From: an uncultured Actinomycetes bacterium
GTDB taxonomy: Bacteria > Actinomycetota > Thermoleophilia > Gaiellales > JAICJC01
Direction of reading: 5' to 3'
Length of the DNA: 64,000 nt
Assembly (NCBI GenBank): GCA_963708725.1
Contig: CAVPTL010000008.1
Span: 530,988-594,987 of the forward strand
The translations under genes and the position numbers were made by a program. Below the pieces are notes generated by a model, which saw only the letters and a program-made list of their open reading frames with translations, did not search any database and was not told the DNA's origin. This document shows positions 4,857 through 63,341 of this stretch, piece by piece (the first letter of the stretch is position 1; each line of letters opens with the position of its first letter).

Positions 4857-4866
4857 TGGAGAATGC

Positions 4867-6339
4867 CTACTGTGCCACGTTTGGCCCGAGGTAGGCCCTG
4901 ATCACGTCTGCTGCGATCGGTGCTGCGACCTGCCCGCCGAACTCGGTCGTGCGATCGATCACGACCGCGACGGCGATCTTTGGTGTGTCCCCGGGGGCTC
5001 CCGGAGCGAACGCGATGAACCATGAGGTGTAGATACTGGAACCCGGGGGCCCGATCTCGGCTGTCCCGGTCTTGCCCGCGACCGGCAGGTTGCCGATCTG
5101 GGCCTCGGTGCCGGTGCCCTCGTCGACGACCTTTTGCATCATGCCGGTCATTTCCTGTGCTGTTTGGTTCGACATCACCCGCTGGATCGCCTGCGGATGG
5201 TGTTGGTAGACGGTTGAACCTCCCGGCGTCACCGCCTTGTCGACGAGCGACGGCTGCATGCGCACACCGCCGTTTGCGATGGTCGCAGCCACCTCCGCCA
5301 TTTGCAGGGGCGTGACCGCCAGGTTGCCCTGCCCGATGGCAGTGCGGGCGACGTCGATCGGTGCCGATTGTGAGATCTGGTGGCCGTTGCGGTAGAGCCC
5401 GGACGGCACGACCTCGTCGCCGGGCAGATCGATCGTGGGATCGGTGAAGAACCCGAACTCGCTCATCGCGTTTCGCAGTCTCTGCGAGCCGATCTTCTGC
5501 CCGACCTGGGCGAACACGGTGTTGACCGATTGGGTCAGGGCGTAGCTCAGGTCGATCGGCGGGAACGACTCGAGCCCGGCGTTGCAGAGCTGGACGAACA
5601 CCTTGATGCAGGCCGGTGCCGGGGTCAGCGGTGATGTGGGCGTGTACAGGTGGCTTTTGAGCGCGGCGGTCGAGGTCACCGTCTTGAAGGTCGATCCCGG
5701 CGTGTACAGGCCCTGAGTGGTGCGGTTCAAGAGCGGTGCGCCCGAGTTCGGCCGGGTGAGCTTGGCGTAGTTTGCGACGACCCGGTTGGGGTTGAAGGTC
5801 GGCGTCGAGGCCATTGCGATCACCCGCCCGGTCGACGGCTGGATTGCGACCACCGCGCCGTGCATCTGGCCAAGGCCGTCCATCGCGGCTCGCTGGGCCG
5901 GTAGTGACAGGCTGGTGATCACGTTGTCGCCGGTGATCGTGCGCCCCCGCAACGAATCGCCGAGGTTTTGGAGCTGAGTCGAGAGGTTCGCGTTCGACGA
6001 TGTCAGGAAGTCGTTGTAGGAGAGCTCGAGCCCCGTCCGTCCCTGATTGACGGAGTTGTACCCCACGGCCTGGGCGAACAGTCCGCGGAAGGGATACTTG
6101 CGGGTGTAAATCGTCTGGCCGTCCTGTTTGGATTGGCGGTTCTCGGCCAGCACAGTGCGGCCGTTGCCGGCAAAGATCAATCCCCGCTTGATCTGAAGCT
6201 GGCGATACACCAGACGGGCGTTGTCCTGGCGCACTGCGAGCGAGTCCGCGGCCCAGATCTGCCAGTAGGCGGTGAACGAGATCAAGACCGCAAAGCCGAT
6301 GGCGCACAGGCGAAAGAGGTTGTTGATCTGGTGGTTCAC
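4867..6339 (-). CDS. pbpA: penicillin-binding protein A / peptidoglycan D,D-transpeptidase (class B, PbpA type)
   Basis: N-terminal TM anchor and transpeptidase motifs (STFK, SVN, KTGTAE). The GTG start overlaps the rodA stop (GTGA). Confidence 0.9.
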   Translation of the reverse strand: MNHQINNLFRLCAIGFAVLISFTAYWQIWAADSLAVRQDNARLVYRQLQIKRGLIFAGNGRTVLAENRQSKQDGQTIYTRKYPFRGLFAQAVGYNSVNQGRTGLELSYNDFLTSSNANLSTQLQNLGDSLRGRTITGDNVITSLSLPAQRAAMDGLGQMHGAVVAIQPSTGRVIAMASTPTFNPNRVVANYAKLTRPNSGAPLLNRTTQGLYTPGSTFKTVTSTAALKSHLYTPTSPLTPAPACIKVFVQLCNAGLESFPPIDLSYALTQSVNTVFAQVGQKIGSQRLRNAMSEFGFFTDPTIDLPGDEVVPSGLYRNGHQISQSAPIDVARTAIGQGNLAVTPLQMAEVAATIANGGVRMQPSLVDKAVTPGGSTVYQHHPQAIQRVMSNQTAQEMTGMMQKVVDEGTGTEAQIGNLPVAGKTGTAEIGPPGSSIYTSWFIAFAPGAPGDTPKIAVAVVIDRTTEFGGQVAAPIAADVIRAYLGPNVAQ

Positions 6340-7637
6340 CGGCGGTCTCGGGTGGTGCGGTTGGAGATCATTAAGAGCAGCGCGAGCAGGAGGAAGTTCG
6401 AGACGATCGAGGAACCGCCGTAGCTCACGAATGGCAGGGTGATGCCGGTCAGCGGAACCAGCCGGGTGACGCCGCCCACGATCAGGAATGCCTGGAGGGA
6501 GAAGGCGAATGTGAGCCCGGCGGCCAGCAGGGTCGAGAACCCGTCAGGGGCGAGCGTCGCGATCTTGAAGCCGCGGTAGGCAAACAGCAGGTACACCAGC
6601 AACAGCCCCGCGGCTCCGGCCAACCCGGCCTCGTCGGCCCACACGGCGTAGATGCCATCGGTCTGGGCGGCTGGGATGATCGGGTGCGGCGGCGACCCCA
6701 CCAGCTGAAAGCTCTTGCCCAGGCCGGTGCCGAACACTCCGCCGTCGGCGATGGCCTCGATCGACTGCACGATCTGATACCCGCTGGTGTGGGCGGTCGC
6801 CCAGGGGTCGATCCAGATCTGGAATCGCTCGTGGACGTGGGCGATGTTCTGGTAGATGAACCACGATCCGGCCGCGAACAGCCCCAGGCCGACGACCGTG
6901 TAGGCGTGGCGCCCGGTGGCCACGTACAGCATCGCCAGAAACACTCCGAACAGAAGCAGGGCGGTGCCGAGGTCGTTCATCACGGCCACCACGCTCAGGG
7001 CGAGCCCGGTCATCAAGAGCAACGGGCCGAAGTGCTTCATGGCGGGGATGCCGATGCCCAGCACGCGGCGGTGGGCGAAGGTCAGAACCTCCCGTTTCTC
7101 GCGAAGGTACCCGGCCAGGAATATCACCAGCAGCAGCTTGGCGAACTCACCCGGCTGCACCTGCACGCCGCCGAATCGCAGCCACAGCTTGGCGCCGTTC
7201 ACGGTCGTGCCGGCGACCATCGTGATCACCAGGAGCAGCACCGCCGTCGCGGCCAGTGTGTACTTGTAGTTCTCGAGCTTCCGGTGGTCGCGAAGCACAA
7301 AGATCAAGCCGGCAAACCCCACCAGCCCGACCACGATCCAGACCGACTGGTCGCGTGCGAGCACCGGGTCGAGCCGGTAGATCTCGATCAACCCGATGGC
7401 CGTCATGAGTGCCGCCAGCGGCAGCAGCCAGGGGTCGGCCAGCGGCAGGCCGGCGCGCACCACCAGGTGTGCGATCACGAACAGGCCGAGGAACAGCCCG
7501 GCGTACACCAGCGAGGTGGATCGGATGTCCTGCTGGCGGGCGGTGTAGACAGCGAGGAAGCCCACCGCTGTCAGCAGGCCGACCCAGCCCAGGTTGACCA
7601 GTTCTCGCATCCGGGGGGTTCGCATGGCGCGGATCAT
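6336..7637 (-). CDS. rodA: FtsW/RodA/SpoVE-family peptidoglycan polymerase (RodA)
   Basis: Polytopic SEDS protein (…TDGIYAVWADEAGLAGAAGLL…PLTGITLPFVSYGGSS…). Start taken at ATG 7635-7637 (MIRAMRTPRM), which overlaps the pstP stop (ATGA). The longer 554-aa track ORF is an Arg-rich extension. Confidence 0.9.
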   Translation of the reverse strand: MIRAMRTPRMRELVNLGWVGLLTAVGFLAVYTARQQDIRSTSLVYAGLFLGLFVIAHLVVRAGLPLADPWLLPLAALMTAIGLIEIYRLDPVLARDQSVWIVVGLVGFAGLIFVLRDHRKLENYKYTLAATAVLLLVITMVAGTTVNGAKLWLRFGGVQVQPGEFAKLLLVIFLAGYLREKREVLTFAHRRVLGIGIPAMKHFGPLLLMTGLALSVVAVMNDLGTALLLFGVFLAMLYVATGRHAYTVVGLGLFAAGSWFIYQNIAHVHERFQIWIDPWATAHTSGYQIVQSIEAIADGGVFGTGLGKSFQLVGSPPHPIIPAAQTDGIYAVWADEAGLAGAAGLLLVYLLFAYRGFKIATLAPDGFSTLLAAGLTFAFSLQAFLIVGGVTRLVPLTGITLPFVSYGGSSIVSNFLLLALLLMISNRTTRDRR

Positions 7638-15414: not shown

Positions 15415-17421
15415 GTGGTCACGAACGGCTCCAACCACCTCCGACCCGACGTGCGGTCCCAGCTGAATCCCCCACGGGGAGTGGCTGAGGTCGTCGCGGA
15501 GTTGTCCGCGGTGGGGCCCGACGCGTTGCCCTCCGCTGCGTGTCGTGCTCTGGCCGACGTACTTCCGCTCGACGAGGCCCGGTTCGTCACCAACATCGGG
15601 GAGGTCGGGTCGTGGGCGCGGGTTCGAGATCGCCGCCGAAGCATCCGTCGACACAGCGTGCAGACCGCTGTGTCCGGGGCAACCGAGCGGCCGTTGCAAT
15701 GGCGAGACGGAAACCAGACGCTGCTTGCAGTGCCGGTTCGCCGCAGCGGCCGTCGGTTGGCGGTGCTCCTTGGATCGGCCGCAACGACGCAGGAGTTCAC
15801 CGATCGGGAAGTACACACGGGTGAGCTCGTGGCCGCTGCGGTCGCGGCGGCCGACGGCGACTCCGAGCGCGACCGTGAAGCGACCGCGCGGCCGCTGGAG
15901 GCTGCGGTGTCGGAGATCGAGGTTGGATGGGCCACGGTCGAGGCGCTGAAAGCGGTGTTGGAGTTCGACGCGTGTCGCGTGTATCTCCCCGGTGTGGGGG
16001 ACAACCGGGTTGCACCGATCGTTCAGTGTGGGATCGGGCAGACTGCGTGCCCCGAAGCGACGACCGCCGAGGCGTGTGCGCCGGGAGTCGGTGCCGCGGG
16101 CCGGGCGATGCTGGACGGGCGATCGCGGATCATCCCCAACAGCCGTTTCGAGCCGCACGCCGCCAAGATCGTCGATGTCGTACCCGTCGACGAATCACTC
16201 TTGGTGGTCCCGGTGATGGTGCATGAGCAGCCCGTTGCGGTGATCGTGGTCGCTCGGCTTGGCGCCGACCAGATCAGTCGCGGAGATCTGGTTGAGGTCG
16301 AGCGCGTTGCCATGCGTTCTGCCTCGGCCTTTCGGGCGGTGGGGCTGTTTCGAAAGGCAGCCGAGCAGGCCCGCGTCTCGCAGGCGTTGCTGGAGCTCGG
16401 TGAGGCACTCGGCGCCCAGACCGGCGTGGAGGGAGTCGCCGCGATGCTTGCGGCCGCCGCTGACCGGTTGATCGAGTGCGCGGCGGTGTCGGTGTGGCTG
16501 CGCGACGGCGATCAGATGCGCATAGCCTCCGCGCGCGGATACACCCCCGACGAATCCGCGCGACTCTTCGAGCAACCGATTCCGGCCGATGCTCCCCTGT
16601 TCGCCGAGGCACTCGATCGCCGCGAGGTGGTGGTGCGCCCGTTCCTCGCCGCCGAGCCGCTCGCCTCGCGACTCGATGGCACGCTCGACGGCTCGACATT
16701 CGCCGTTGTCGCGGTCGGCGAGCGCTCGGCGAATCGGGCTGCCATCGTCGTCCAGCGTGGCCCGCGCCGGGGTGCTCCGTCCCCGCTCGAACGCCAGATG
16801 CTGCATGGCATCGCGGATCAGACCTTGATCGCGCTCACAAACCGGATGCTGTATGCCGAACTCGACCAGTGGTTTCTGGCGACGGTGCAGGCACTTGCCA
16901 CAGCGCTCGAGACCAAGGACGAGTACACGGGGATGCACGCAAGCCAGCTCGAGCAACTCTGCACCACCGTCGCGTCCGAGCTTGGCCTGACCGGGGCCGA
17001 GTTGCGAAACGTGAAGCTCGGTGCGCTGCTGCACGACATCGGCAAGATCGGAATCCCGTCGCCGATCCTGAACAAGCCCGCGCCACTGACCGAGGCGGAG
17101 TGGGAGGTGATGCGGCGCCATCCTGAGCTCGGCGCTCGCATCATCGAGCCGGTCGCCGGCCTCGACGGCGCCCGCGAGCTGGTGATCGCCTGTCATGAGC
17201 ACTGGGATGGGAGCGGCTATCCCAACGGCCTTGCGGGCGAGGCGATCCCACTGGGGGCGCGCATCATCCTGACCTGCGATGCCTACGACGCGATGACCTC
17301 TGATCGGGTGTATCGCGCCGCGCTTCCGGTCTCGGAGGCGATTGTCGAACTCCAGCGACACGCCGGCACACAGTTTGATCCGGCGGTGGCGGATGCAGTG
17401 GTGGCCGTCGTCGGCGAGTGA
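15415..17421 (+). CDS. GAF-domain-containing HD-GYP protein (putative c-di-GMP phosphodiesterase)
   Basis: The C-terminal HD-GYP domain is clear (HDIGKIGIP…CHEHWDGSGYPNGL). The N-terminal ~430 aa look like tandem GAF domains. The start is uncertain. Confidence 0.85.
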   Translation: MVTNGSNHLRPDVRSQLNPPRGVAEVVAELSAVGPDALPSAACRALADVLPLDEARFVTNIGEVGSWARVRDRRRSIRRHSVQTAVSGATERPLQWRDGNQTLLAVPVRRSGRRLAVLLGSAATTQEFTDREVHTGELVAAAVAAADGDSERDREATARPLEAAVSEIEVGWATVEALKAVLEFDACRVYLPGVGDNRVAPIVQCGIGQTACPEATTAEACAPGVGAAGRAMLDGRSRIIPNSRFEPHAAKIVDVVPVDESLLVVPVMVHEQPVAVIVVARLGADQISRGDLVEVERVAMRSASAFRAVGLFRKAAEQARVSQALLELGEALGAQTGVEGVAAMLAAAADRLIECAAVSVWLRDGDQMRIASARGYTPDESARLFEQPIPADAPLFAEALDRREVVVRPFLAAEPLASRLDGTLDGSTFAVVAVGERSANRAAIVVQRGPRRGAPSPLERQMLHGIADQTLIALTNRMLYAELDQWFLATVQALATALETKDEYTGMHASQLEQLCTTVASELGLTGAELRNVKLGALLHDIGKIGIPSPILNKPAPLTEAEWEVMRRHPELGARIIEPVAGLDGARELVIACHEHWDGSGYPNGLAGEAIPLGARIILTCDAYDAMTSDRVYRAALPVSEAIVELQRHAGTQFDPAVADAVVAVVGE

Positions 17422-17563: not shown

Positions 17564-18925
17564 ATGGCGACAATCGAAGATACGCGGAACCTCGAGGCGG
17601 TTCGCGCTGAGGTCGTGCGAGAGGTGCGCGAGCGCGAGATCAAGTTCGTGCGGCTGTGGTTTACCGACGTGGTGGGACGGCTCAAGAGCTTTGCGATCAC
17701 GGCGTCAGAACTCGAGGGTGCACTCGAGCGGGGGATGGGGTTCGACGGCTCATCGGTCACGGGCTTCAACGCGATCGAGGAATCCGACATGATCGCGATG
17801 CCGGATCCCACCACCTTCAAGGTGCTGCCGTGGCAGACCGGTGAGAGCAACGTGGCGCGCATGATCTGCGACGTGCGCACACCCGACGGTGAGCCGTACG
17901 AGGCAGACTCGCGGCACGTGCTGCGAACCGCTCTGGAGCGGATGCACTCGCTCGGCTTCGACTCGTTCAAGGTCGGCCCGGAACTCGAGTACTTCTACTT
18001 CAAGATCGACGAGCAGGGCCGCCCGCACGCGCTCGACTCCGGCGGCTACTTCGAAGAGACGACGGTGGATGCCTCGGCGGACCTGCGCAAGGAGACCGTG
18101 CTGGCGCTCGAGGGGATGGGGATTCCGGTCGAGTATCTCCACCATGAGGTCGGCCCGTCACAGCACGAGATCGACGTGCGCTACGCCGAGGGTCTCGACA
18201 TGGCCGATCACTGCATCACGTACCGAAATGTCGTGAAAGAGGTCGCCAAGAAGCACGGTATCCATGCGACCTTTATGCCGAAGCCGCTTTTCGGCGTCAA
18301 CGGCTCGGGGATGCACACCCATCAGTCGCTCTTCATCGGCGACTCCAACGCGTTCTATGACCCGGACGACCCGTGGTTTTTGTCCGATGTGGCCAAGAGC
18401 TTCATCGCGGGCCAGCTGCGTCACGCGCGCGAGATCTCGATGCTGTTCGCGCAGTGGGTCAACAGCTACAAGCGGCTGGTGCCGGGGTATGAGGCGCCGG
18501 TGTACGTCGCGTGGTCGCGGCGCAACCGATCCGCGCTGATTCGGGTGCCGCTGTATCACCCTGGCATGGAGAAGGCGACGCGGGCAGAGATTCGCTGCCC
18601 CGATCCGTCGTGCAACCCGTATCTGGCCTTCGCCGGTCTGCTGCACGCCGGGCTGGAGGGGATCGAGAAGGGCTATGAGCTGCCCGATCCGATGGAGAGC
18701 AACCTCTATGACCTGACCGCCCCCGAGCGCGCGAGCCTCGGGATCGACTCGCTGCCCGAGTCGCTGGGTGAGGCGATCGAGGCGGCGGCGAGCTCGGAGC
18801 TCGTTGAGAAGGCACTCGGAAGCGAGCTGCGCGATCGGCTGGTGACGCTCAAGCGCGAGGAGTGGGACGAGTACCGGGTGCAGGTAACGCCGTGGGAGTT
18901 GGAGCGATACCTCCCCACGCTGTAA
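17564..18925 (+). CDS. glnA: glutamine synthetase, type I
   Basis: GS-I motifs (FDGSSVTGF, NGSGMHTHQSLF, VPGYEAPVY…SRRNRSALIRVP). AGGAGG lies 7 nt upstream of ATG 17564. Confidence 0.95.
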   Translation: MATIEDTRNLEAVRAEVVREVREREIKFVRLWFTDVVGRLKSFAITASELEGALERGMGFDGSSVTGFNAIEESDMIAMPDPTTFKVLPWQTGESNVARMICDVRTPDGEPYEADSRHVLRTALERMHSLGFDSFKVGPELEYFYFKIDEQGRPHALDSGGYFEETTVDASADLRKETVLALEGMGIPVEYLHHEVGPSQHEIDVRYAEGLDMADHCITYRNVVKEVAKKHGIHATFMPKPLFGVNGSGMHTHQSLFIGDSNAFYDPDDPWFLSDVAKSFIAGQLRHAREISMLFAQWVNSYKRLVPGYEAPVYVAWSRRNRSALIRVPLYHPGMEKATRAEIRCPDPSCNPYLAFAGLLHAGLEGIEKGYELPDPMESNLYDLTAPERASLGIDSLPESLGEAIEAAASSELVEKALGSELRDRLVTLKREEWDEYRVQVTPWELERYLPTL

Positions 18926-18933
18926 GAGATCGG

Positions 18934-18957
18934 CGACAATCCCCGGATGGATTGTCG
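18934..18957 (+). other. 9-bp hairpin in the glnA-pdtaS spacer
   Basis: CGACAATCC[CCGGAT]GGATTGTCG, with no U-tract after it. Confidence 0.4.
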
Positions 18958-18975
18958 ACTGACCAGGAGTTGCCC

Positions 18976-20469
18976 GTGAGCGCGGTCGCCGAGCGCGACC
19001 GCGCCGCGCGGCACCTCCAGCTTCTGACCGAAACGATCGCGGCGGTCAACTCGACGCTGGACCTGGCCGGCGTGTTCACCCAGATCGCGTCCAAGGTTGC
19101 GCAGGCGATGAACACCGATGCCTGTTACGTGTACCTGTACGACGAGCCCAGCGGCATGCTGGAGCTGCGAGCCACCCACGGTGCCCGCTTCGACGACCCG
19201 GCCCACCGACCGCGGATGGCCCCGGGTGAGGGCATCACGGGTGTGGCGGCGGCATCGCTGCGTCCGGTGACGATCGCGCGGGCGGCGCATCTCGATCCAC
19301 GGTTCCTGTCGTTTCCGAACCTGCCCGAAGACGAGTACGAGTCGATCCTGGCGGTGCCGGTACTGGCTCGCGACAAGCTTGCCGGCGCGCTGAATGTGCG
19401 TACCCGTGAGCCGCGGGTGTTCGGCGCCGACGAGATCGCGTTGCTGTCGGCGATTGCCGGCCAGGTCGGCCAGGCAATCGAGAACGCGAAGCTGTACGAG
19501 CGCTCCCAGCAGCGGGTGGTCGAGCTGGAGGCTCTGGCCGACATCGGTCGCACGATGTCGGGTTCGCTCTACCTGGATGAGGCGCTGGCCGGAATCGCCA
19601 CCCGCGCGATGCGCGCGCTCGGCGCCGACGGCTGCGCGGTCGTGCTCGAAAGCGATGAGGGGATCTCGGTGGGCTTCCGCGAGGGCGTCACCCGATCGGA
19701 CGCCGACCTGATCGCGATGGCGGGGGCCGCCGAGCCCGAGGGCGAGACGTTTCTCGTGCGCCGCTTGCAGTGGAAGCAGCGCGACAACGGGGCGCTGGTG
19801 GTGCTGTCGGAGACTCCGCGCTCGTGGTCGCCCGAGGAACGCTCGTTGCTCACGACGATCGCCCACGCCGCAAGCGCCGCGGTCGCAAACGCCCAGGCGG
19901 CGCTGCGCGGCCTGCTGGCTCAGGAGATTCACCATCGGGTCAAGAACAACCTTCAGACGGTCGCCTCGCTGCTCCGTCTCCAGGCCGGCGCGACCGACGA
20001 CGAGCACGCGTCCAAGGCGCTCGAGGAGAGTGTCAACCGCATTCTTTCGATCGCGGCGGTCCATGATCTTCTGACCGAGTCCCGAGCCGACGATGTCGAC
20101 TGCGCGGGCCTGATCGGCACGCTCGAGGCGATGCTGGGGCAGGGCCTTGGCGGCCGCAGCTTGGACTCTCAGCTCGACTCGGTGAAGCTTTCCGGGGCGC
20201 GCGCCACCGCGCTTGCCCTGGTGTTCTGTGAGCTCTTCCAAAATGCGGTCGAGCACGGTGGCGGCGCTATCCAGGTCGGGTTGAGGCGAACCGGCGAGAC
20301 GATCGAGCTGACGGTCTCGGACGAGGGCAGCGGGCCGTCGTCCGACAGCCAGCCGGGGCTGGGGCTTCGGATCGCGCAGGCGCTTGTCACCGGCGAGCTC
20401 GGCGGGACGTTGGAGCTGGCCACCGCGGGGAGTGGGAAGGCGGTGGTGAGATTTCCGGCCGCGTCTTGA
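18976..20469 (+). CDS. pdtaS: GAF-domain sensor histidine kinase, HisKA_2 type (PdtaS-like)
   Basis: The H-box EIHHRVKNNLQTVASLLRLQ and a C-terminal HATPase region (ELFQNAVEHG…DEGSG…GLGLRI). Start placed at GTG 18976 after CCAGGAG. The track ORF start at 18862 overlaps glnA. Confidence 0.85.
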   Translation: MSAVAERDRAARHLQLLTETIAAVNSTLDLAGVFTQIASKVAQAMNTDACYVYLYDEPSGMLELRATHGARFDDPAHRPRMAPGEGITGVAAASLRPVTIARAAHLDPRFLSFPNLPEDEYESILAVPVLARDKLAGALNVRTREPRVFGADEIALLSAIAGQVGQAIENAKLYERSQQRVVELEALADIGRTMSGSLYLDEALAGIATRAMRALGADGCAVVLESDEGISVGFREGVTRSDADLIAMAGAAEPEGETFLVRRLQWKQRDNGALVVLSETPRSWSPEERSLLTTIAHAASAAVANAQAALRGLLAQEIHHRVKNNLQTVASLLRLQAGATDDEHASKALEESVNRILSIAAVHDLLTESRADDVDCAGLIGTLEAMLGQGLGGRSLDSQLDSVKLSGARATALALVFCELFQNAVEHGGGAIQVGLRRTGETIELTVSDEGSGPSSDSQPGLGLRIAQALVTGELGGTLELATAGSGKAVVRFPAAS

Positions 20470-21020
20470 TCGCCGAGGACGAGACGATCATCCGGCTCGA
20501 TCTGGCCGCGATGCTGCAACGCGCCGGCTTCGAGGTGGTGGCTGAGGCCAGCGACGGTCTCGAGGCGGTCGACCTGGCGGCGTCATCGGCGCCGGATATC
20601 GCGCTGCTCGACGTCAAGATGCCTGGTCTCGACGGCATCGACGTGGCCCGCAAGATCCTGGAGCAGCGTCCGATACCGGTGGTGATCGTGACCGCCTTTT
20701 CGGAGCGCGAGGTGGTGGAGCGCGCGATCGAGGCCGGGGTGTTCGGGTACCTGGTCAAGCCATTTCGCGAGGGTGATCTGTTACCGGCGATCGAGACCGC
20801 CCGGGCTCGTCACGCCGAGCTCGAGGAGCTGCGGGCCGAGTCGGACGACCTTCGCGACGCTCTGGCTGCGCGCAAGGCGATCGAGCGGGCCAAGGGACTG
20901 CTGATGGCTCGCGATGACCTCACCGAGTCAGAAGCATTTGGCCGCATGCGTCGCGCATCTCAGCAAACCGGCCGCTCGATGCGCGAGATCGCCGAGGCCA
21001 TCGTCGCAACCCTTGAATAA
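20466..21020 (+). CDS. pdtaR: response regulator with ANTAR RNA-binding output domain (PdtaR-like)
   Basis: REC domain (IAEDETIIRLDL…LDVKMPGLDG…YLVKP) plus an ANTAR helix pattern (AARKAIERAKGLLMARDDLTESEAFGRMRRASQQTGRSMREIAEAIV). The TTG start overlaps the pdtaS stop. Confidence 0.9.
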   Translation: MIAEDETIIRLDLAAMLQRAGFEVVAEASDGLEAVDLAASSAPDIALLDVKMPGLDGIDVARKILEQRPIPVVIVTAFSEREVVERAIEAGVFGYLVKPFREGDLLPAIETARARHAELEELRAESDDLRDALAARKAIERAKGLLMARDDLTESEAFGRMRRASQQTGRSMREIAEAIVATLE

Positions 21021-55169: not shown

Positions 55170-56114
55170 ATGTCCACTCGGCCAATCACAGTTCTCTCGG
55201 GCGGCGTCGGCGCCGCCCGGTTCCTCCAGGGTGTGATCGATGTGGTGCCGGCAACCGACGTCACCGCGATCGGGAACGTCGGCGACGATCTCGAGATCTA
55301 CGGGCTGCACGTCTCGCCGGATCTCGACACCGTGCTCTACACGCTCACCGGCTGGATCGACGAGCAAAAGGGCTGGGGCGTGCGAGGCGACAGCTCCCGC
55401 GCGCTCGATCGCGCCCGGGATCTCGGCGCGCCCGCATGGTTTTGGCTGGGCGATCTCGACATCGGTCTGCACCTGGCGCGCACCGAGCGGTTGCGCCTGG
55501 GTGAGCCGCTGAGCGCGATCACCGCGGTTCTGTGCGAGGCCCTCGGCCTGGGCGTCCAACTCCTGCCGAGCACCGATGATCGGCTGCGCACGATGGTGAT
55601 GACACCGGCGGGGGAGCTCGACTTCCAGACGTACTACGTCGGCCGCCAGCACCGAGACACGGTCACCGGTCTGCGCTATGACGGCGCCGATGCCGCGCGC
55701 CCCGCAGCGGGAGTGATCGATGCTCTCGGCGGTGCGCGAGCGATCGTGATCGCTCCGTCCAATCCCCTGATCTCGATCGAGCCGATCCTCGCCGTCCCCG
55801 GCGTGCGTGAGGCACTTGGCGCCCGCACAGCGCCGTGCGTCGCGGTCAGCCCGATCGTCGCAGGGGCGGCCCTGCGCGGCCCTGCCGCCGACATGCTGCG
55901 CTCGCTCGGGCACGAGGTCTCGCCAGTCGGCGTCGCCCGCCACTACGGCGAGCTGATCGACGCGATCGTGATCGATACCAGCGATGCAGATCTGGCACCG
56001 GCGATCGAGGCCCTGGGCGTTCGGGCAATCGTGACCGACACGGTCATGCGCGATCCCCAGGTGCGCGCGGCGCTCGCCCGATCGGCGCTTGCCGCCGCCG
56101 GAATCGAGGCCTAG
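55170..56114 (+). CDS. cofD: 2-phospho-L-lactate transferase (F420 biosynthesis, CofD/FbiA)
   Basis: [16 protein letters not shown]…GNVGDD…[13 protein letters not shown]…WFWLGD…APSNPLISI… are hallmark CofD motifs. Confidence 0.9.
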
Positions 56115-57459: not shown

Positions 57460-58461
57460 GTGATCACCCTCGGTTACAAGGCCTCTGCCGAGCAGTTTGC
57501 TCCGGTCGAGCTGCTGCGGTTTGCACTCGCCGCCGAGCGCAACGGGTTTGACTCGGTCGCGATCTCGGATCATTTTCAGCCGTTTCGGCACACCGGCGGT
57601 CACGCCCCGGCGGCCCTGCCGTGGTTGGGTGCGCTCGCTGTTCAGAGCGAGCGGATCAGGATCGGCACCAGCGTCTCGACCCCGACGATGCGATTTCATC
57701 CCTCGATGGTTGCGCAGGCGTTCGCCACGCTTGGATGTTTCGCGCCGGGGCGGATGTTTCTGGGGGTTGGCACCGGCGAGTCGATGAACGAGGTGCCGCC
57801 GCTGGGGATCGAATGGCCGGGATTCAGCGAACGGCTGGGTCGCCTGAAGGAGGCGATCGAGCTGATTCGGCTGCTCTGGACCGAGGACCGCGTGAGCTTT
57901 GAGGGCGAGTACTACACGACCCGGCGGGCCACGGTGTATGACCGCCCCGAGACGCCGCTTCCGATCCTGATCGCCGCTGCCGGTCCTCGCGCGGCGCGGT
58001 TCGTGGGGCGAACCGGCGACGGTTTCATCACCACCAGTGGCAAGCCACCCGAGCTCTACTCCGAGACGTTGCTGCCGGCCGTGGCCGAGGGAGCGATCAA
58101 GGCCGGTCGCGATCCTGAGTCGCTGGAGAAGCTGCTCGAGGTCAAGGTCTCGTACGATCCCGATCACGCCCGGGCGGTTGCCGAATGCGCGTTCTGGGCA
58201 CCGCTGGCCTTGCCGGCCGAGGCCAAGCAAGGTGTGCATGACCCGCTCGAGCTCGAGCGGCTGGCAGATAGTCCCGACGTTCACGCCGAGAGCCGCTTCA
58301 TCGTGTCGGGCGATCCGCAGGAGCAGGTCGAACGCATCGGTGCCTACGTCGATCTCGGCTTTCGCCACCTCATCTTCCACAGCCCAGCGCCTGATCAGGA
58401 GCGGTTTCTCGAGATGTTCGGCAGCCAGGTGCTGCCGCTCCTGCGCGCCCGCTACAGCTGA
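57460..58461 (+). CDS. fgd: F420-dependent glucose-6-phosphate dehydrogenase
   Basis: Collinear with mycobacterial FGD1 as I remember it (LGYKASAEQFAP…SDHFQP(F/W)RH.GGHAP…GVGTGE(S/A)(M/L)NE…FWAPL(A/S)L…). GTG start. Confidence 0.85.
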   Translation: MITLGYKASAEQFAPVELLRFALAAERNGFDSVAISDHFQPFRHTGGHAPAALPWLGALAVQSERIRIGTSVSTPTMRFHPSMVAQAFATLGCFAPGRMFLGVGTGESMNEVPPLGIEWPGFSERLGRLKEAIELIRLLWTEDRVSFEGEYYTTRRATVYDRPETPLPILIAAAGPRAARFVGRTGDGFITTSGKPPELYSETLLPAVAEGAIKAGRDPESLEKLLEVKVSYDPDHARAVAECAFWAPLALPAEAKQGVHDPLELERLADSPDVHAESRFIVSGDPQEQVERIGAYVDLGFRHLIFHSPAPDQERFLEMFGSQVLPLLRARYS

Positions 58462-58859
58462 CCGCGGGCGGCGGGTCCCAGCACTCGCTGGGGTGCCAGA
58501 TACCACTTCACGCGCTGCTCGCCCGGCTCGAGGTCGCGAAACCGCTCGCCCGTGTACTTGATCGCGATCTCGTGCGAGTGGGCGTCGCCGGCCTCGGGGT
58601 CGCGGTGCTCGGCCACACACCGGATCTCAGCGTAGTACTCGTCATCCTCATCGGAGGTGATCTCGACCGTGCAGCGCGGCTCGCGCTGGAGGTTTCGATC
58701 CTTCACCCTGCCGATCGCCGTGTTGAACACCACCAACCCGTCCTCGACGTCGATCCAAAGCGGCGTCACCTGCACCGATCCGTCGCGGTTGATTGTCGCC
58801 AGATGAGCCAGCAACGGCGCCTCGAGCAGCGCGATCGCACCGGCGGGCAACTCGATCAT
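58452..58859 (-). CDS. PPOX-class probable F420-dependent enzyme
   Basis: …LLAHLATINRDGSVQVTPLWIDVEDGLVVFNTAIGRVKDRNLQREPRCTV… split-barrel pattern. ATGA overlap with the upstream LLM gene. Confidence 0.7.
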   Translation of the reverse strand: MIELPAGAIALLEAPLLAHLATINRDGSVQVTPLWIDVEDGLVVFNTAIGRVKDRNLQREPRCTVEITSDEDDEYYAEIRCVAEHRDPEAGDAHSHEIAIKYTGERFRDLEPGEQRVKWYLAPQRVLGPAARGQL

Positions 58860-59809
58860 GCGGCCACAACCTCGGGCACCAGCTCGTTTCCGATCAGCTC
58901 GACCATCTCGATGTCAGTGTGGCACAGATGCTGGAGCATCACCCGCTCGACCCCGACCTCGGCGAGGGCATGGAGCTTCTCCACCACCTCCGGCACGGTG
59001 CCGCCGATCCAGTCGTCGCGGTTTTCGCGCAAAAGGGCGGCGCCGCTGTCGCCCAGGCCCAGGGCGGCCAGGTCGTCCAGCCGGCGGCTGAGTTCATGGA
59101 CGTCGGCGCCGACCACCGCGGTCGTCATCACCGACATTGCCAGCGTGGCCGGGTCGCGGCCGGCGGCCTCGCAGGCCCGGTCAAGGCGTTCGCGCAGGGC
59201 GCGGCACTCCTCGACGTCGCCGGTGACGGCGTTGTATTCCTGGGCAAACCGCACGGCAATGGCCACACTTCGGGGCTTGCCGGCGCCGCCGACGATCACC
59301 GGCGGATGGGGGCTCTGGAGTGGCCGCGGCAACGAAGGGCACCGATCCAGGGTGTAGTGGTCGCCAGCGAACGAGAACTCGTCCTCAGTCCACTGACGGG
59401 TGATGATCTCGAGCTGCTCTTCGAGCATCTGCATCCGGGCCTTCAGCGGCGGAAACGGAAACCCGAAGGCCTCGTGCTCCAGCTCGTACCAGCCCGCTCC
59501 AAGCCCGAGCTCCACCCGCCCGCCGGAGATGTGGTCGACCGTTGTTGCACTTTTGCCGAGTACGGACGGGTGCCGGAACGTCGCGGGTGACACCATCGTT
59601 CCCAGCCTGATTCGCGAGGTGTGCGCGGCGATCCCCGCCAGAGTGGTCCACGCGTCCAGCGACCCACGCCCGACCCGGCCGTCACCGGACAGGTAGTGAT
59701 CCGAGCGAAACAGCCCGTCGAGGCCGGTGCGCTCGGTGGCCTCGGCCAGCGCCAGCCATTGATCCCAGGTGACATCCTCCTGGCCCTCCACCATCAGGCA
59801 CAGTCGCAT
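58856..59809 (-). CDS. LLM-class F420-dependent oxidoreductase
   Basis: MRLCLMVEGQEDVTWDQW…FRSDHY…LGTMVSPATFRHPSVLGKSATTVDHISGGRVELGLGAGW…. Confidence 0.8.
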   Translation of the reverse strand: MRLCLMVEGQEDVTWDQWLALAEATERTGLDGLFRSDHYLSGDGRVGRGSLDAWTTLAGIAAHTSRIRLGTMVSPATFRHPSVLGKSATTVDHISGGRVELGLGAGWYELEHEAFGFPFPPLKARMQMLEEQLEIITRQWTEDEFSFAGDHYTLDRCPSLPRPLQSPHPPVIVGGAGKPRSVAIAVRFAQEYNAVTGDVEECRALRERLDRACEAAGRDPATLAMSVMTTAVVGADVHELSRRLDDLAALGLGDSGAALLRENRDDWIGGTVPEVVEKLHALAEVGVERVMLQHLCHTDIEMVELIGNELVPEVVAA

Positions 59810-59817
59810 TGCTGGGG

Positions 59818-60246
59818 TCAGGCCCCCAGGTGCGCGGATCGGATAGCGTCGATCAGCTCGTCGAGGCCCACGCCTTTCTTAAGGCAGTTGGACGCCCCGG
59901 CGGCGAGCGCGGCCTCGATCATCTGAGGCTCGTCGTAGGCCGACAACACCACCACCGGCATCGCCCACTCCGCGTGCGCAATGTTCTCGGTGGCCTCGAT
60001 CCCGTCCACGTTGGGCATGCGCATGTCCATGACCACGACGTTGGGGCGCTTTGTTTCGGCCAGCGTCATCGCTTCAGCACCATCGCCGGCCTCACCCACG
60101 ACATGCATTCCGGCCTCCTCGAGTGCATCACGCAGAACACCCCGGAGCAGGGCGTTGTCTTCGGCAATGACGATCGTAATATCGTTATCCACGGGGCTGC
60201 GAGGTTCTGGATCCCCGCGAACCATACCGGGGTTCTGCGCGGTCAT
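59818..60246 (-). CDS. single-domain response regulator (receiver only)
   Basis: …IVIAEDNALLRGVL…VVVMDMRMPNVDG…VVVLSAY…CLKKG… REC motifs. No output domain. Confidence 0.85.
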   Translation of the reverse strand: MTAQNPGMVRGDPEPRSPVDNDITIVIAEDNALLRGVLRDALEEAGMHVVGEAGDGAEAMTLAETKRPNVVVMDMRMPNVDGIEATENIAHAEWAMPVVVLSAYDEPQMIEAALAAGASNCLKKGVGLDELIDAIRSAHLGA

Positions 60247-60252
60247 GTGACC

Positions 60253-61047
60253 TCAGCTCGCCGATGCGTACAGGTCGTCGACGGCCGCGGCGGCGGAGCG
60301 GGCGGCGGCACCTGGTGCCGAGCCGCGTGACCGCTCGAGCACGTACACGGCCAGCCACGAATCGCCCGCCCCGGTGGGATCGTCGAAGCTCTCGCCGTTG
60401 GAGCCGCTGCGCTCCACACCCTCGGCGGTGACCACCATCGCTCCGTCTCGGCCGAGTGTGATCGCCACCTCGGGCACGTTGAGCCGTGCCAGCCGCTCGG
60501 GCTCGACTCCCCCGCACACGGCCATCGCCTCGGCCCGGCTCAGCTTGAGCATCGCCGCTCCCGCAACGGCCTCGGCGGGGAATGGCCGCAGTCGCAGCGG
60601 CCCTGGGTCTGGCCCGCGGGCGAGTCCCTGAGCATCGATGCAGACGAGCAGCCCCGCCTCGGACAACACCGCGATCATGTCCGGCGGGAAGTCGGTCGAG
60701 GCCTGCCCGCCCAGAATCACCCATTCGCAACCCCCGAGCAGTGGCAGCATTTCGCGAGCTTCGGCCGCCGTGAACGGTTCTCCGACCGCGGCCAGCTGTT
60801 GATCGGTGGCTTCCGGCGAGTGGACGAGCACCGACTCGAAGGTGGACCGCGATGGCAGCACAACGGCGTCGGGAAGCTCGGCGCCCTTGGTGATCACCAC
60901 CGGTTCCACACCCACCGCCCGCAGCGCGCGGGCCGCGTACAGGGGCGTCCCGCCCAGCCGGCGTTGGGTGGCTTCGGCCGGTGTCGATACGACGTCCCAC
61001 CCGGTATGGCCGATCACGGCGACGCTCACCCGGTCATTATCCGCCAT
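60253..61047 (-). CDS. PfkB-family (ribokinase-like) small-molecule kinase, substrate unknown
   Basis: 264 aa. N-terminal …VAVIGHTGWDVV… and C-terminal DPTGAGD signature. ATG at 61047 (MADNDRVSV). Confidence 0.75.
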   Translation of the reverse strand: MADNDRVSVAVIGHTGWDVVSTPAEATQRRLGGTPLYAARALRAVGVEPVVITKGAELPDAVVLPSRSTFESVLVHSPEATDQQLAAVGEPFTAAEAREMLPLLGGCEWVILGGQASTDFPPDMIAVLSEAGLLVCIDAQGLARGPDPGPLRLRPFPAEAVAGAAMLKLSRAEAMAVCGGVEPERLARLNVPEVAITLGRDGAMVVTAEGVERSGSNGESFDDPTGAGDSWLAVYVLERSRGSAPGAAARSAAAAVDDLYASAS

Positions 61048-61279
61048 CGTCCGCCGGCCCGACGGGTTGGCGCAGGCGCGATACCTGATCGCGCAGCTGG
61101 TCGGCGGCGTCGTCGGCGGTGGATGCGATCCGGTCGAGTGCTCGCTTGGCGGTCTCGGCGTCGCCGGCGTCGAGTGCCGTGAGCGCAGCATCGGTCAGCA
61201 GCCTGATCGCTGTCACCGATTGCTGCGGCCCGTCGTGCAACCAGGCCGCGAGTCGTTCGCGCTCAGTCGATGAGGGCAT
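61037..61279 (-). CDS. stand-alone HisKA_3-type DHp (dimerisation/His-phosphotransfer) protein, 80 aa, no ATPase domain
   Basis: MPSSTERERLAAWLHDGPQQSVTAIRLLTDAALTALDAGDAETAKRALDRIASTADDAADQLRDQVSRLRQPVGPADDGG. Contains the NarX/DesK-type H-box (ER.RLA..LHD….Q). About 80% of codons end in G or C. It overlaps the regulator gene by 17 nt and the PfkB gene by 11 nt. In the track it is hidden inside the 181-aa ORF 61037..61582. Confidence 0.55.
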   Translation of the reverse strand: MPSSTERERLAAWLHDGPQQSVTAIRLLTDAALTALDAGDAETAKRALDRIASTADDAADQLRDQVSRLRQPVGPADDGG

Positions 61280-61922
61280 AGCGCAGCGCCAGTGCGACGG
61301 CTTGGGTGCGCGTGTCGGCTTCGAGCTTCGCCATCGCGTTTCGCACATGGGTGCGAACGGTCTCGGGGCTGATGAAGAGCTTCGCGGCGATCTCGGGGTT
61401 GGAGTTGCCGTCGGCCAGCAGGCCGAGGATTTCGCGCTCGCGACCCGACAGCGCCGGCAGCCGCTCGGTGGCCTTCGGGCTGACGAGTTCGGACGCCAGG
61501 GTCGGATCGACGTATGCCCCGCCTTCGGCCACGCGCTTGACCGCTCGCACGATGTCGTCGGGTGGCGCGTCCTTGAGCACATACCCGCGTGCGCCGCAGT
61601 CGAGGCCCTCCGCCAGTAGACCCCGCTCGCTGTGGGCGGTGTAGAGGATGACGGCCATGTCGGGGTGGTTGGCCGTTATCTGGCGGGTGGCCGCGAACCC
61701 GTCCATGCCCTCCATCCGCACGTCCATGACCACCACGTCGGGGCGGCGGCGACCGGCCATCTCGACCGCTCCGCGACCGCTGCTACTCTCGCCGATCACG
61801 GTAATCTCGCGGTCTCGGGCGAGAATCATCTTGACGCCTTCGCGCACGGCAGCGTGATCATCGACGACGATGCAGCGCACTTGCGTGAGTTCAGAACCGG
61901 AAGATCCGTGTGTGGCAGCCAC
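61263..61922 (-). CDS. NarL/LuxR-family response regulator
   Basis: REC domain (…CIVVDDHAAVREG…VVVMDVRMEGMDG…) plus a LuxR helix-turn-helix (LSGREREILGLLADGNSNPEIAAKLFISPETVRTHVRNAMAKL). Confidence 0.9.
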   Translation of the reverse strand: MAATHGSSGSELTQVRCIVVDDHAAVREGVKMILARDREITVIGESSSGRGAVEMAGRRRPDVVVMDVRMEGMDGFAATRQITANHPDMAVILYTAHSERGLLAEGLDCGARGYVLKDAPPDDIVRAVKRVAEGGAYVDPTLASELVSPKATERLPALSGREREILGLLADGNSNPEIAAKLFISPETVRTHVRNAMAKLEADTRTQAVALALRYALID

Positions 61923-61981
61923 GGGGCACCGTCCGAAATGTTTCCATCGTTTGTAGGAGCCGAACGTTACTTGGGAGAACT

Positions 61982-61987
61982 TACAAT
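61982..61987 (+). promoter_or_regulatory. candidate -10 element for a leaderless CDF transcript
   Basis: TACAAT lies 7 nt upstream of ATG 61995, with no Shine-Dalgarno in between (ACCCCGC). No convincing -35. Confidence 0.4.
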
Positions 61988-61994
61988 ACCCCGC

Positions 61995-63341
61995 ATGTCA
62001 ACCGCACGCCGAACCGCGTTGGCGTCTCTGGGCGGCGCGCTGGCTCTGGCGCTGGCGAAGCTCGCGGTCGGCCTTGCCACCGGGAGCCTCGGAATTCTGG
62101 CTGAGGCGGCCCATTCGGGCATGGATGCTGTTGCCGCCCTGTTGACCGTGTACGCGGTTGGGGTCGCCGAGCGGCCGGCCGATAGCGACCATCCCTACGG
62201 TCACGGCAAGGCTCAGCATCTGTCCGCGCTGGCCGAGGCGGCGATCCTGGCGGCGGTCGCGGTGTGGATCGCGGTCGAGGCGACCACGCGCCTCATCAAC
62301 GGCAGCACGGCGGTGTCGGCCACCTGGTACGCGTTCGTGTTGATGGTGATCGTGCTGGTCGTCGATGCCGGACGGTCAACGGCGTCCCTGCGGGTCGGCC
62401 GGGCCGAACACAACGCGGCGCTCCTGGCCAACGCCGCGCATTTTGCGTCGGACTTCGTCGGCAGCCTCGCGGTGCTGGTCGGCCTCATCCTGGTGTCGTT
62501 CGGAGTGCAGGGCGGCGACTCGGTGGCCGCCATCTTCGTGTCGGTGATCGTGCTTGCCGGTGCCGCCCGGCTGGCCTGGATCAACGTCGATGTGCTGATG
62601 GATCGTGCTCCGACCGGTACCGCTTGGCGGGTCGAGCGGGCCGCGCTTTCGGTGCCGGGAGTGACCGCCGTACGCTCGGTGCGTGTGCGCGAGGCCGGTG
62701 GTGAGAACTTTGCCGAAGTGGTGATCGGCGTGTCGCGACTGGCCGGGCTCGAGCGTTCGCACGACACGATGGATCTGGTGGAGCAGGCGGTGATCGAGGA
62801 GCTCGGCCGCGCGCAGGTGGTGGTGCACGCCGAACCCGACGCCGTGGGCGAGCGCGCCAACGATCGCATCGCCGCGGCCGCGCTGCGCGTCCCGGGTGTG
62901 GTCGAGACGCACAACATCACTGTCCTGGCTCAGCCCGACGGGCTCGCGGTCACGCTGCACGTGCGGCTCCCTGAGGACACTCCACTGTCGGAGGCCGGTG
63001 CCGTGGTGATGCGGTTGAAGCAGGAGATCCGGCGCGAGATCGGGGTCGCCCGCGTCTTCGCCCATGTGGAGCCATCCCTCCCGGACGCCCAACCCGCCCA
63101 GGAGGTCACGAGCGTCGAGCCCGCCGTGCTGCGGATCGCCGCTGACGCGGTGCGCTCGGTGGCGGGCGACGGCGCCGAGGTGGTCGTCTATCGCCAGGCC
63201 GAGCGCTTGCTGGTCGTGACCTCGGTGCACGGTCAGCCGACCATGACCGTTCGCGACTCACACGAACTCGCAAGCCGCATCGAAGACGTCGTCCGCGAAC
63301 GGCTCGACCACGTCGACGACGTGATCGTCGAGGTCATCTAG
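61995..63341 (+). CDS. cation diffusion facilitator (CDF) metal efflux protein with three tandem cytoplasmic C-terminal domains
   Basis: Six TM helices with HSGMD (TM2) and HFASD (TM5) metal-site motifs, then three ~75-aa repeats of the …PGV…V…V…G….V…HV…EP type. 448 aa. ATG inside the longer track ORF. Confidence 0.85.
   Translation: MSTARRTALASLGGALALALAKLAVGLATGSLGILAEAAHSGMDAVAALLTVYAVGVAERPADSDHPYGHGKAQHLSALAEAAILAAVAVWIAVEATTRLINGSTAVSATWYAFVLMVIVLVVDAGRSTASLRVGRAEHNAALLANAAHFASDFVGSLAVLVGLILVSFGVQGGDSVAAIFVSVIVLAGAARLAWINVDVLMDRAPTGTAWRVERAALSVPGVTAVRSVRVREAGGENFAEVVIGVSRLAGLERSHDTMDLVEQAVIEELGRAQVVVHAEPDAVGERANDRIAAAALRVPGVVETHNITVLAQPDGLAVTLHVRLPEDTPLSEAGAVVMRLKQEIRREIGVARVFAHVEPSLPDAQPAQEVTSVEPAVLRIAADAVRSVAGDGAEVVVYRQAERLLVVTSVHGQPTMTVRDSHELASRIEDVVRERLDHVDDVIVEVI

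Follow-up and report, generated by a model that had tools for sequence, protein, structure and literature searches.

The window, by which we mean the whole stretch of 64,000 nucleotides of Gaiellales DNA that was analysed, harbours an 80-codon reading frame that appears to be a translated and selectively maintained gene. Its predicted product consists of a HisKA_3 dimerisation and histidine phosphotransfer (DHp) domain, without the catalytic HATPase_c (CA) domain. Histidine kinases are defined by the presence of both a DHp and a CA domain. The gene lies in a four-gene module, preceded by a NarL/LuxR-type response regulator and followed by a PfkB-family enzyme and a single-domain receiver (REC). 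The reading that we favour, with a probability of about one half, is that the bare DHp protein works without a CA domain, transferring phosphoryl groups between the two receivers through its histidine and/or dephosphorylating them, probably in complex with the PfkB-like protein.

The DHp gene and its module

The features of the module and of its conserved neighbour are the following.

61263..61922, minus strand: NarL/LuxR-type response regulator, REC and GerE domains, 219 aa (Pfam Response_reg 94.5 bits, GerE 70.6 bits)
61263..61279, minus strand: 17-nt overlap between the 3' end of the regulator gene and the start of the DHp gene, with the ATG within the regulator's ..RYALID* codons
61037..61279, minus strand: stand-alone HisKA_3 DHp protein, 80 aa (MPSSTERERLAAWLHDGPQQ...SRLRQPVGPADDGG; Pfam HisKA_3)
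61220..61237, minus strand: codons 15-20 of the DHp gene, H-D-G-P-Q-Q, with the phospho-acceptor His15 and the D16-x-x-x-Q20 motif (sequence reading)
61037..61047, minus strand: 11-nt overlap between the DHp stop and the PfkB-like start, read as translational coupling
60253..61047, minus strand: PfkB-family, myo-inositol-kinase-like protein, 264 aa (Pfam PfkB)
59818..60246, minus strand: single-domain response regulator (REC only), 142 aa (Pfam Response_reg 101.6 bits)
61998..63341, plus strand: cation-diffusion-facilitator (CDF) transporter, divergent, conserved neighbour (Pfam Cation_efflux and ZT_dimer)

The DHp reading frame extends over 80 codons of the minus strand, from an ATG at 61279-61277 to a TAA at 61039-61037. 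Re-reading of the letters confirmed what an earlier, sequence-only reading of this DNA had put forward regarding these coordinates, the 17-nt and 11-nt overlaps and the nesting of the frame in a mechanical 181-aa ORF (61037..61582), the upstream part of which shadows the regulator gene in another frame. The same reading had described a complete HisKA_3 DHp domain with its phospho-acceptor His and a D-x-x-x-Q motif, and had proposed a Pfam search as a check. The HisKA_3 profile (PF07730) matched the product with 49.2 bits (cutoff 24; E 7.7e-13) over profile positions 1-66 of 68, and the HPt profile (PF01627) gave no match to it at E <= 1. The third-position G/C content, put at about 80% in that reading, was found to be 0.78, against 0.67 for the whole window. 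A PDB sequence search with the DHp profile returned DesK as the best match, at a weak E-value of about 0.005, together with spurious matches to designed repeats. In the AF2 model of a natural fusion protein described below (P0267), the homologous DHp region forms a hairpin of two helices, spanning residues 8-44 and 48-76, with pLDDT values of 83-97. The data hence support the assignment of the product as a complete two-helix HisKA_3 DHp domain without a catalytic domain, which should build the usual homodimeric four-helix bundle.

Just five residues (MPSST) are encoded upstream of the DHp domain, with no sensor or transmembrane (TM) input region, and the frame ends ten residues past DHp helix 2, with no HATPase_c domain bearing N, G1 and G2 boxes. 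Lacking a sensor, a TM segment and a HATPase_c domain, the protein would be no kinase on its own, and it is predicted to be unable to autophosphorylate alone. NarX, DesK and LiaS belong to the same HisKA_3 DHp family and share with the window protein the His and DxxxQ phosphatase motif and NarL-family partner receivers, but, unlike these kinases, the window protein is devoid of all three of the elements mentioned above.

The regulator gene ends with a TGA at 61265-61263. The gene that follows the DHp frame is not a HATPase_c gene but, as had already been noted from the sequence, one for a sugar-kinase-fold protein, matching Pfam PfkB with 31.5 bits (cutoff 25.8). Its ATG is located at 61047-61045, and an in-frame GTG at 61029 provides an alternative start, which would leave a 7-nt gap. 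The two receiver genes are the most conserved of the module, with identities across relatives of 84-93% for the regulator and 79-89% for the REC-only protein, and both receivers retain the acidic pocket, the phospho-Asp, the Ser/Thr and the Lys. The CDF transporter occupies the same position in six of the relatives (L001, L002, L006, L007, L008 and L080). In the short stretch that separates the regulator from the divergent CDF transporter (61923-61997), and in its homologues, nearly all relatives share a conserved ATTGTA hexamer whose distance to the CDF start codon is approximately 7-9 nt, and in one clade of the family, the pseudo-CA clade defined below, this intergenic region additionally keeps a conserved GTTTCCAATCGTT motif. 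Both are candidate promoter or operator elements.

The module is followed in the window by F420-type genes (57460-59809 and 55170-56114), which encode two luciferase-like oxidoreductases and a PNPOx-like protein. CofC, CofD and CofE are found in two relatives (L001 and L005), and a CofD match is also present in the window. Pfam annotation of 44 ORFs of the 64-kb window further outlined a set of actinobacterial type for cell division and signalling (two FHA proteins, FtsW/RodA, a PBP transpeptidase and a PASTA Ser/Thr kinase) and two copies of COX1. The sole complete histidine kinase of the window is a GAF-HisKA_2-HATPase_c protein (18862-20469, plus strand), which overlaps by 4 nt a REC-ANTAR regulator (20466-21020, plus strand) to form a PdtaS/PdtaR-like pair. 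The gene just upstream of this kinase (15415-17421, plus strand) encodes a product of 668 aa that combines two GAF domains with an HD_5/HD domain of HD-GYP-like type.

Conservation and selection of the short form

A search against 5.8 billion proteins returned seven short homologues of 56-80 aa, which are 68-98% identical to the window protein and are each annotated as HisKA_3 only. Comparison with related genomes had also been suggested as a way of establishing whether the short form and its overlaps are conserved, and orthologues of 72-80 aa with identical synteny and overlaps were indeed present in independent ENA, NCBI and JGI assemblies. The contigs that carry the short form share the same gene order (divergent CDF transporter, regulator, DHp, PfkB-like, REC and F420-type oxidoreductase), both in Nanopore-derived MAGs and in two JGI metagenomes. 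An assembly artefact of Nanopore MAGs was considered as the source of the short form and rejected, given that two JGI metagenome contigs carry the 74-aa form of the gene with these overlaps as well.

Among seven short orthologues, 38 of the 80 positions are invariant, including the MPSST, LHDGPQQ and TAIRLL stretches, and H15, D16 and Q20 are conserved in all seven. Pairwise dN/dS of codons 7-70, a stretch free of either overlap, ranges from 0.15 to 0.31 at dS values of 0.4-1.2; the bootstrap 95% upper bounds do not exceed 0.57, and none of 300 replicates reaches 1. The ratio is similar to that of the PfkB-like gene (0.13-0.48), and both genes are far less constrained than those encoding the regulator (0.01-0.17) and the REC protein (0.06-0.10). 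Furthermore, the frame is open in every member of the window clade, across three data sources. These dN/dS values, at dS of up to 1.2, and the conservation across the clade point to a gene under purifying selection.

Origin by domain deletion

A scan for the module with a PfkB-like profile against one genome per GTDB species identified the four components (regulator, DHp or kinase, PfkB-like and REC) in about 55 loci from Gaiellales/Thermoleophilia MAGs. In nearly all of the syntenic relatives, the regulator gene is separated from the PfkB-like gene by one for a HisKA_3 protein of 215-290 aa, comprising a DHp domain and a CA-sized C-terminal domain. These full-length kinases start at the regulator stop minus 16, as does the DHp gene in the window, and throughout the family the stop of the kinase or DHp gene overlaps the PfkB-like start or lies within a few nt of it.

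The alignment of these proteins revealed that the window protein corresponds to the ancestral MPSST start joined straight to the DHp domain, and that it lacks the entire CA domain as well as a stretch that bears 0-2 TM helices in the relatives. The short form derives from a small HisKA_3 kinase through two internal deletions, one removing the TM segment and the other the CA domain, both of which are precise and in frame in the alignment. The ancestral start, located in the last codons of the regulator gene, and the ancestral stop, located over the PfkB-like start, have been retained. The LHDGPQQ stretch is unchanged in 51 of the 52 aligned family members, the exception being L040 (HDGPLQ), and the His, the Asp and the final Gln are present in all 52. 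A further relative outside this alignment, L063, reads HDGAQQ.

Degeneration and loss of the catalytic domain

The state of the CA domain varies across the family. In about 29 loci it is intact, with an E-A-A-x-N-A-A-R/K-H N box, a G1-like D-x-G-G and a G-I/V-G G2 box, and Pfam HATPase_c scores of 40 bits in L007 and L026 and 21 bits in L006. In 17 other loci a pseudo-CA is found, which has lost the G1 and G2 boxes and carries Gly, His, Gln or Ser in place of the N-box Asn; in these loci HATPase_c yields no Pfam match even at E <= 1, and HisKA_3 is still matched with 39-45 bits. A neighbour-joining tree of the regulator, PfkB and REC sequences separates the pseudo-CA members of the family from the CA-intact ones as two clades. 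The CA-less clade of the window is nested within the latter, beside L007, L016 and L020, and a second CA-less lineage (L049 and L051) is nested within the pseudo-CA clade. The PfkB domain of this second lineage is 66-76% identical to the stand-alone PfkB proteins of the pseudo-CA clade and approximately 45% identical to those of the window clade. Based on this placement and on these identities, the CA domain has been deleted independently at least twice, in the window clade and in the distant lineage, which encodes fusions of DHp and PfkB-like domains. Degeneration of the CA domain is a trend across the whole family.

Several loci present irregular forms of these genes. In L043 (4361-5007), a 93-aa DHp ORF stops at 4642 and the pseudo-CA goes on in another frame (4633-5007), reflecting a genuine split or else a frameshift introduced in assembly. 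An apparent DHp-CA-PfkB fusion in L058 was discarded as a frameshift artefact, with the true C-terminus in another frame and a garbled N-box region. Two CA-less modules, L009 and L010, lie on two contigs of a single MAG (MFD03975.bin.2.246) and encode DHp proteins that differ at a few positions; they reflect either a duplication or strain heterogeneity.

The comparative data bear on the notion that the short frame has no function and is what remains of a kinase gene, spared from stop codons only by chance or by the constraints of overlapping genes. The existence of full-length kinases in relatives is compatible with this notion, and the first six and last four codons are constrained by the overlaps with the neighbouring genes. 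Against it stand the low dN/dS of the non-overlapping codons, the frame kept open across the clade, the invariance of the His and DxxxQ residues and of almost half of all positions, and the precision of the two in-frame deletions. The sequence-only reading had held that a full-length kinase at this position in relatives would mark the short gene as a decaying remnant. The first part stands, since HisKA_3 and HATPase_c domains do occur together in distant syntenic relatives, but the inference of decay fails because the ancestral start and stop have been kept, the short form persists across a clade with dS of approximately 1, selection is as strong as on the PfkB-like gene and the CA domain has been lost independently. 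A decaying pseudogene was ruled out as a candidate on the basis of dN/dS and conservation, and the remnant reading as a whole appears largely refuted and is considered very improbable.

Loss of the CA domain could also reflect a split kinase, in which the DHp protein is phosphorylated in trans by a CA-only protein or by a heterodimerising paralogous HisKA_3 kinase encoded elsewhere. Such an arrangement is known in Mycobacterium tuberculosis, where the kinase is divided between HK1 (Rv0600c, CA) and HK2 (Rv0601c, His-containing), and where, as in the window, the His-bearing part is a separate small protein. A split kinase would be in line with the invariance of the His and of the adjacent Asp required for the chemistry of autophosphorylation, and with the descent of the window clade from CA-intact ancestors. 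In M. tuberculosis, however, the adjacent gene encodes the CA domain, whereas in the window it encodes a ribokinase-fold enzyme and no CA gene is found nearby. In the 5-6 kb around the module of each CA-less relative, and in the 64-kb window, searches with tblastn and phmmer detected no relocated CA domain, and a scan of the whole window with more than 100 HisKA_3 kinases detected no other HisKA_3 or CA sequence. A split kinase also leaves the tight coupling and fusion with the PfkB-like protein unexplained. We regard it as improbable and, like the remnant reading, as less likely than a CA-independent function of the DHp protein.

A PfkB-like enzyme in the signalling module

The AF2 model of the PfkB-like protein (pLDDT 94.5) has its best Foldseek matches in TM0415 (TM-score 0.82, E 7e-19) and the myo-inositol 3-kinase of Thermococcus kodakarensis. 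The latter (3w4s) is also its best sequence match in the PDB, over the full length of the protein (phmmer E 7.6e-7), and identity to both enzymes is only about 20%. The Gaiellales PfkB-like proteins all share the GG, D-x-Q-G-x-x-R and PTGAGD motifs without change, and the NxxE motif takes the form SxxE in the proteins of the window clade. The residues that contact myo-inositol in the T. kodakarensis enzyme (MI3K_TK) are D12, G26, Q136, R140 and D219 (PMC5931981). All five align with invariant residues of the Gaiellales proteins, located in the Asp of an IGHxxxD motif, the GG motif, the D-x-Q-G-x-x-R motif and the Asp of GAGD. Given this invariance, the PfkB-like protein appears to be an active kinase of small molecules (cyclitols or sugars). 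Its closest matches, the T. kodakarensis enzyme (3w4s/4xf7) and the PPi-dependent myo-inositol 1-kinase TM0415 (1vk4/5ysp), are neither of them known to be linked to two-component proteins, unlike the Gaiellales PfkB-like protein.

In addition, two kinds of gene fusion involve this enzyme. In L049 and L051, a DHp domain lacking both TM segments and a CA domain is in frame with a PfkB-like domain. Fusions of this kind, which combine HisKA_3 and PfkB domains in 316-323 aa, fall into six protein clusters from NCBI, JGI, ENA and Logan, and their occurrence in MEGAHIT (k141-named), JGI and Logan assemblies counts against an assembly artefact. The AF2 model of one of them, P0267 (pLDDT 93, pTM 0.80), comprises the DHp hairpin, a linker of approximately 10 residues and a ribokinase fold. 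The second kind joins PfkB-like and REC domains in proteins of approximately 396 aa, in a sub-clade (L006, L018, L019, L029 and L033). The PfkB-REC set includes the L006 gene at 6001-7191, which a GGDEF gene directly follows, and the proteins P0019, P0022, P0028-P0030, P0033 and P0035. A further locus, L063 (4775-5450), encodes a regulator 92% identical to that of the window clade and has its DHp in frame with a PfkB-like domain; the gene is frameshifted further on in this Nanopore MAG, and this candidate third DHp-PfkB fusion is kept as a caution only. One Gaiellales lineage, L022 (4782-6197), has just a PfkB-like gene and a REC gene beside the CDF transporter; the regulator is missing, as is any DHp or kinase gene. 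Both kinds of fusion and the family-wide stop/start overlaps indicate that DHp, PfkB-like and REC are functionally tied, and the PfkB-like enzyme appears to be an integral part of the signalling module.

These ties raise the question of whether the PfkB-like protein could replace the CA domain, binding the DHp dimer and phosphorylating His15 from ATP or PPi, the pair then forming a histidine kinase whose catalytic domain is not of the Bergerat fold. Such a role would supply a phosphodonor that is otherwise missing, and it would agree with the repeated loss or decay of the CA domain while the His/DxxxQ residues and the PfkB motifs (GG, N/SxxE, PTGAGD) stay invariant. Furthermore, in the fusions the PfkB-like domain sits exactly at the former place of the CA domain, the linker following directly on DHp helix 2, and in the window the PfkB-like gene is translationally coupled to the DHp gene. 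Several observations speak against this role. To our knowledge, no ribokinase-fold enzyme phosphorylates protein histidine, and literature searches returned no link between PfkB proteins and two-component signalling. The five invariant inositol-binding residues point to a small-molecule acceptor, and about 29 loci have the PfkB-like gene alongside an apparently intact CA domain. In addition, the PfkB-REC fusions and the PfkB-like and REC pair of L022 better fit an enzyme-receiver module. Histidine phosphorylation by the PfkB-like protein is hence deemed unlikely. The more far-reaching proposal that the DHp and PfkB-like pair and its natural fusions constitute a new class of histidine kinase, with the pseudo-CA relatives as evolutionary intermediates, is considered about as unlikely.

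Proposed role of the bare DHp protein

The favoured reading, that of a CA-independent phosphotransferase and/or phosphatase, has precedents in degenerate kinases. Spo0B of Bacillus subtilis, ChpT of Caulobacter and PhyT of Sphingomonas are dimeric histidine phosphotransferases derived from histidine kinases (PMC5898713). They have in common with the window protein a DHp core with a phosphorylatable His, the lack of ATP-dependent autophosphorylation and an origin by kinase degeneration, and they connect a single-domain receiver with an output regulator; genes for proteins of both kinds are present in the window operon. The 17 pseudo-CA relatives present exactly this architecture. In contrast, Spo0B, ChpT and PhyT all keep a CA-like domain and the 80-aa window protein has none, which counts against the favoured reading. 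Their DHp domains are of the HisKA, HisKA_2 or HWE-like type, whereas that of the window protein is HisKA_3 and is moreover coupled to a PfkB-family enzyme.

Under the proposed mechanism, phosphoryl groups would be shuttled between the REC protein and the NarL-type regulator via His15 or, alternatively, removed from the receivers via D16 and Q20. The DHp protein would probably act in complex with the co-translated inositol-kinase-like protein, which may be a metabolite-sensing partner (a trigger enzyme) or an output controlled by the receivers, and either a small molecule or a kinase from elsewhere in the genome could supply the phosphoryl groups. A CA-independent role is in agreement with the 17-locus clade, which lacks the N-box Asn, G1 and G2 and still keeps the His and DxxxQ residues. 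The invariance of the His across about 25 genomes with a defective or absent CA domain favours phosphotransfer over phosphatase activity alone, although a purely phosphatase or a regulatory role would also fit the sequence. Since the window clade stems from the CA-intact clade and not from the pseudo-CA clade, a switch of mechanism must be assumed. A further point against the favoured reading is that the only complete kinase of the window is of the PdtaS-like HisKA_2 type and has its own REC-ANTAR partner.

Implications

Literature searches on stand-alone HisKA_3 or DHp proteins, on PfkB and two-component systems and on the two-component systems of Gaiellales returned nothing specific, and no account of the module turned up in the searchable literature. 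Phosphotransferases derived from kinases were already known, all of them with a pseudo-CA domain; the novel element is a bare 80-aa HisKA_3 DHp domain under selection, together with its place in a four-gene module that includes a PfkB-family enzyme, as documented by gene fusions of two kinds and by successive grades of CA loss. The deletion of the N-terminal membrane segment, the apparent integration of the PfkB-like enzyme in the module and the family-wide degeneration of the CA domain extend what had been read from the sequence of the window.

Within one bacterial order, the family offers a graded natural series from an intact CA domain through a pseudo-CA domain to none, the last state having been reached twice. 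An inositol-kinase-like enzyme is always found beside this kinase/DHp family, and in some relatives it is fused to the DHp domain or to a receiver. The module hence poses the question of whether a bare 80-aa DHp domain can serve as a phosphotransferase or phosphatase, and of how a metabolic enzyme is wired into two-component signalling, be it as sensor, as output or even as phosphodonor. Loss of the CA domain, with the DHp domain kept under selection, shows how the components of phosphorelays arise from kinases.
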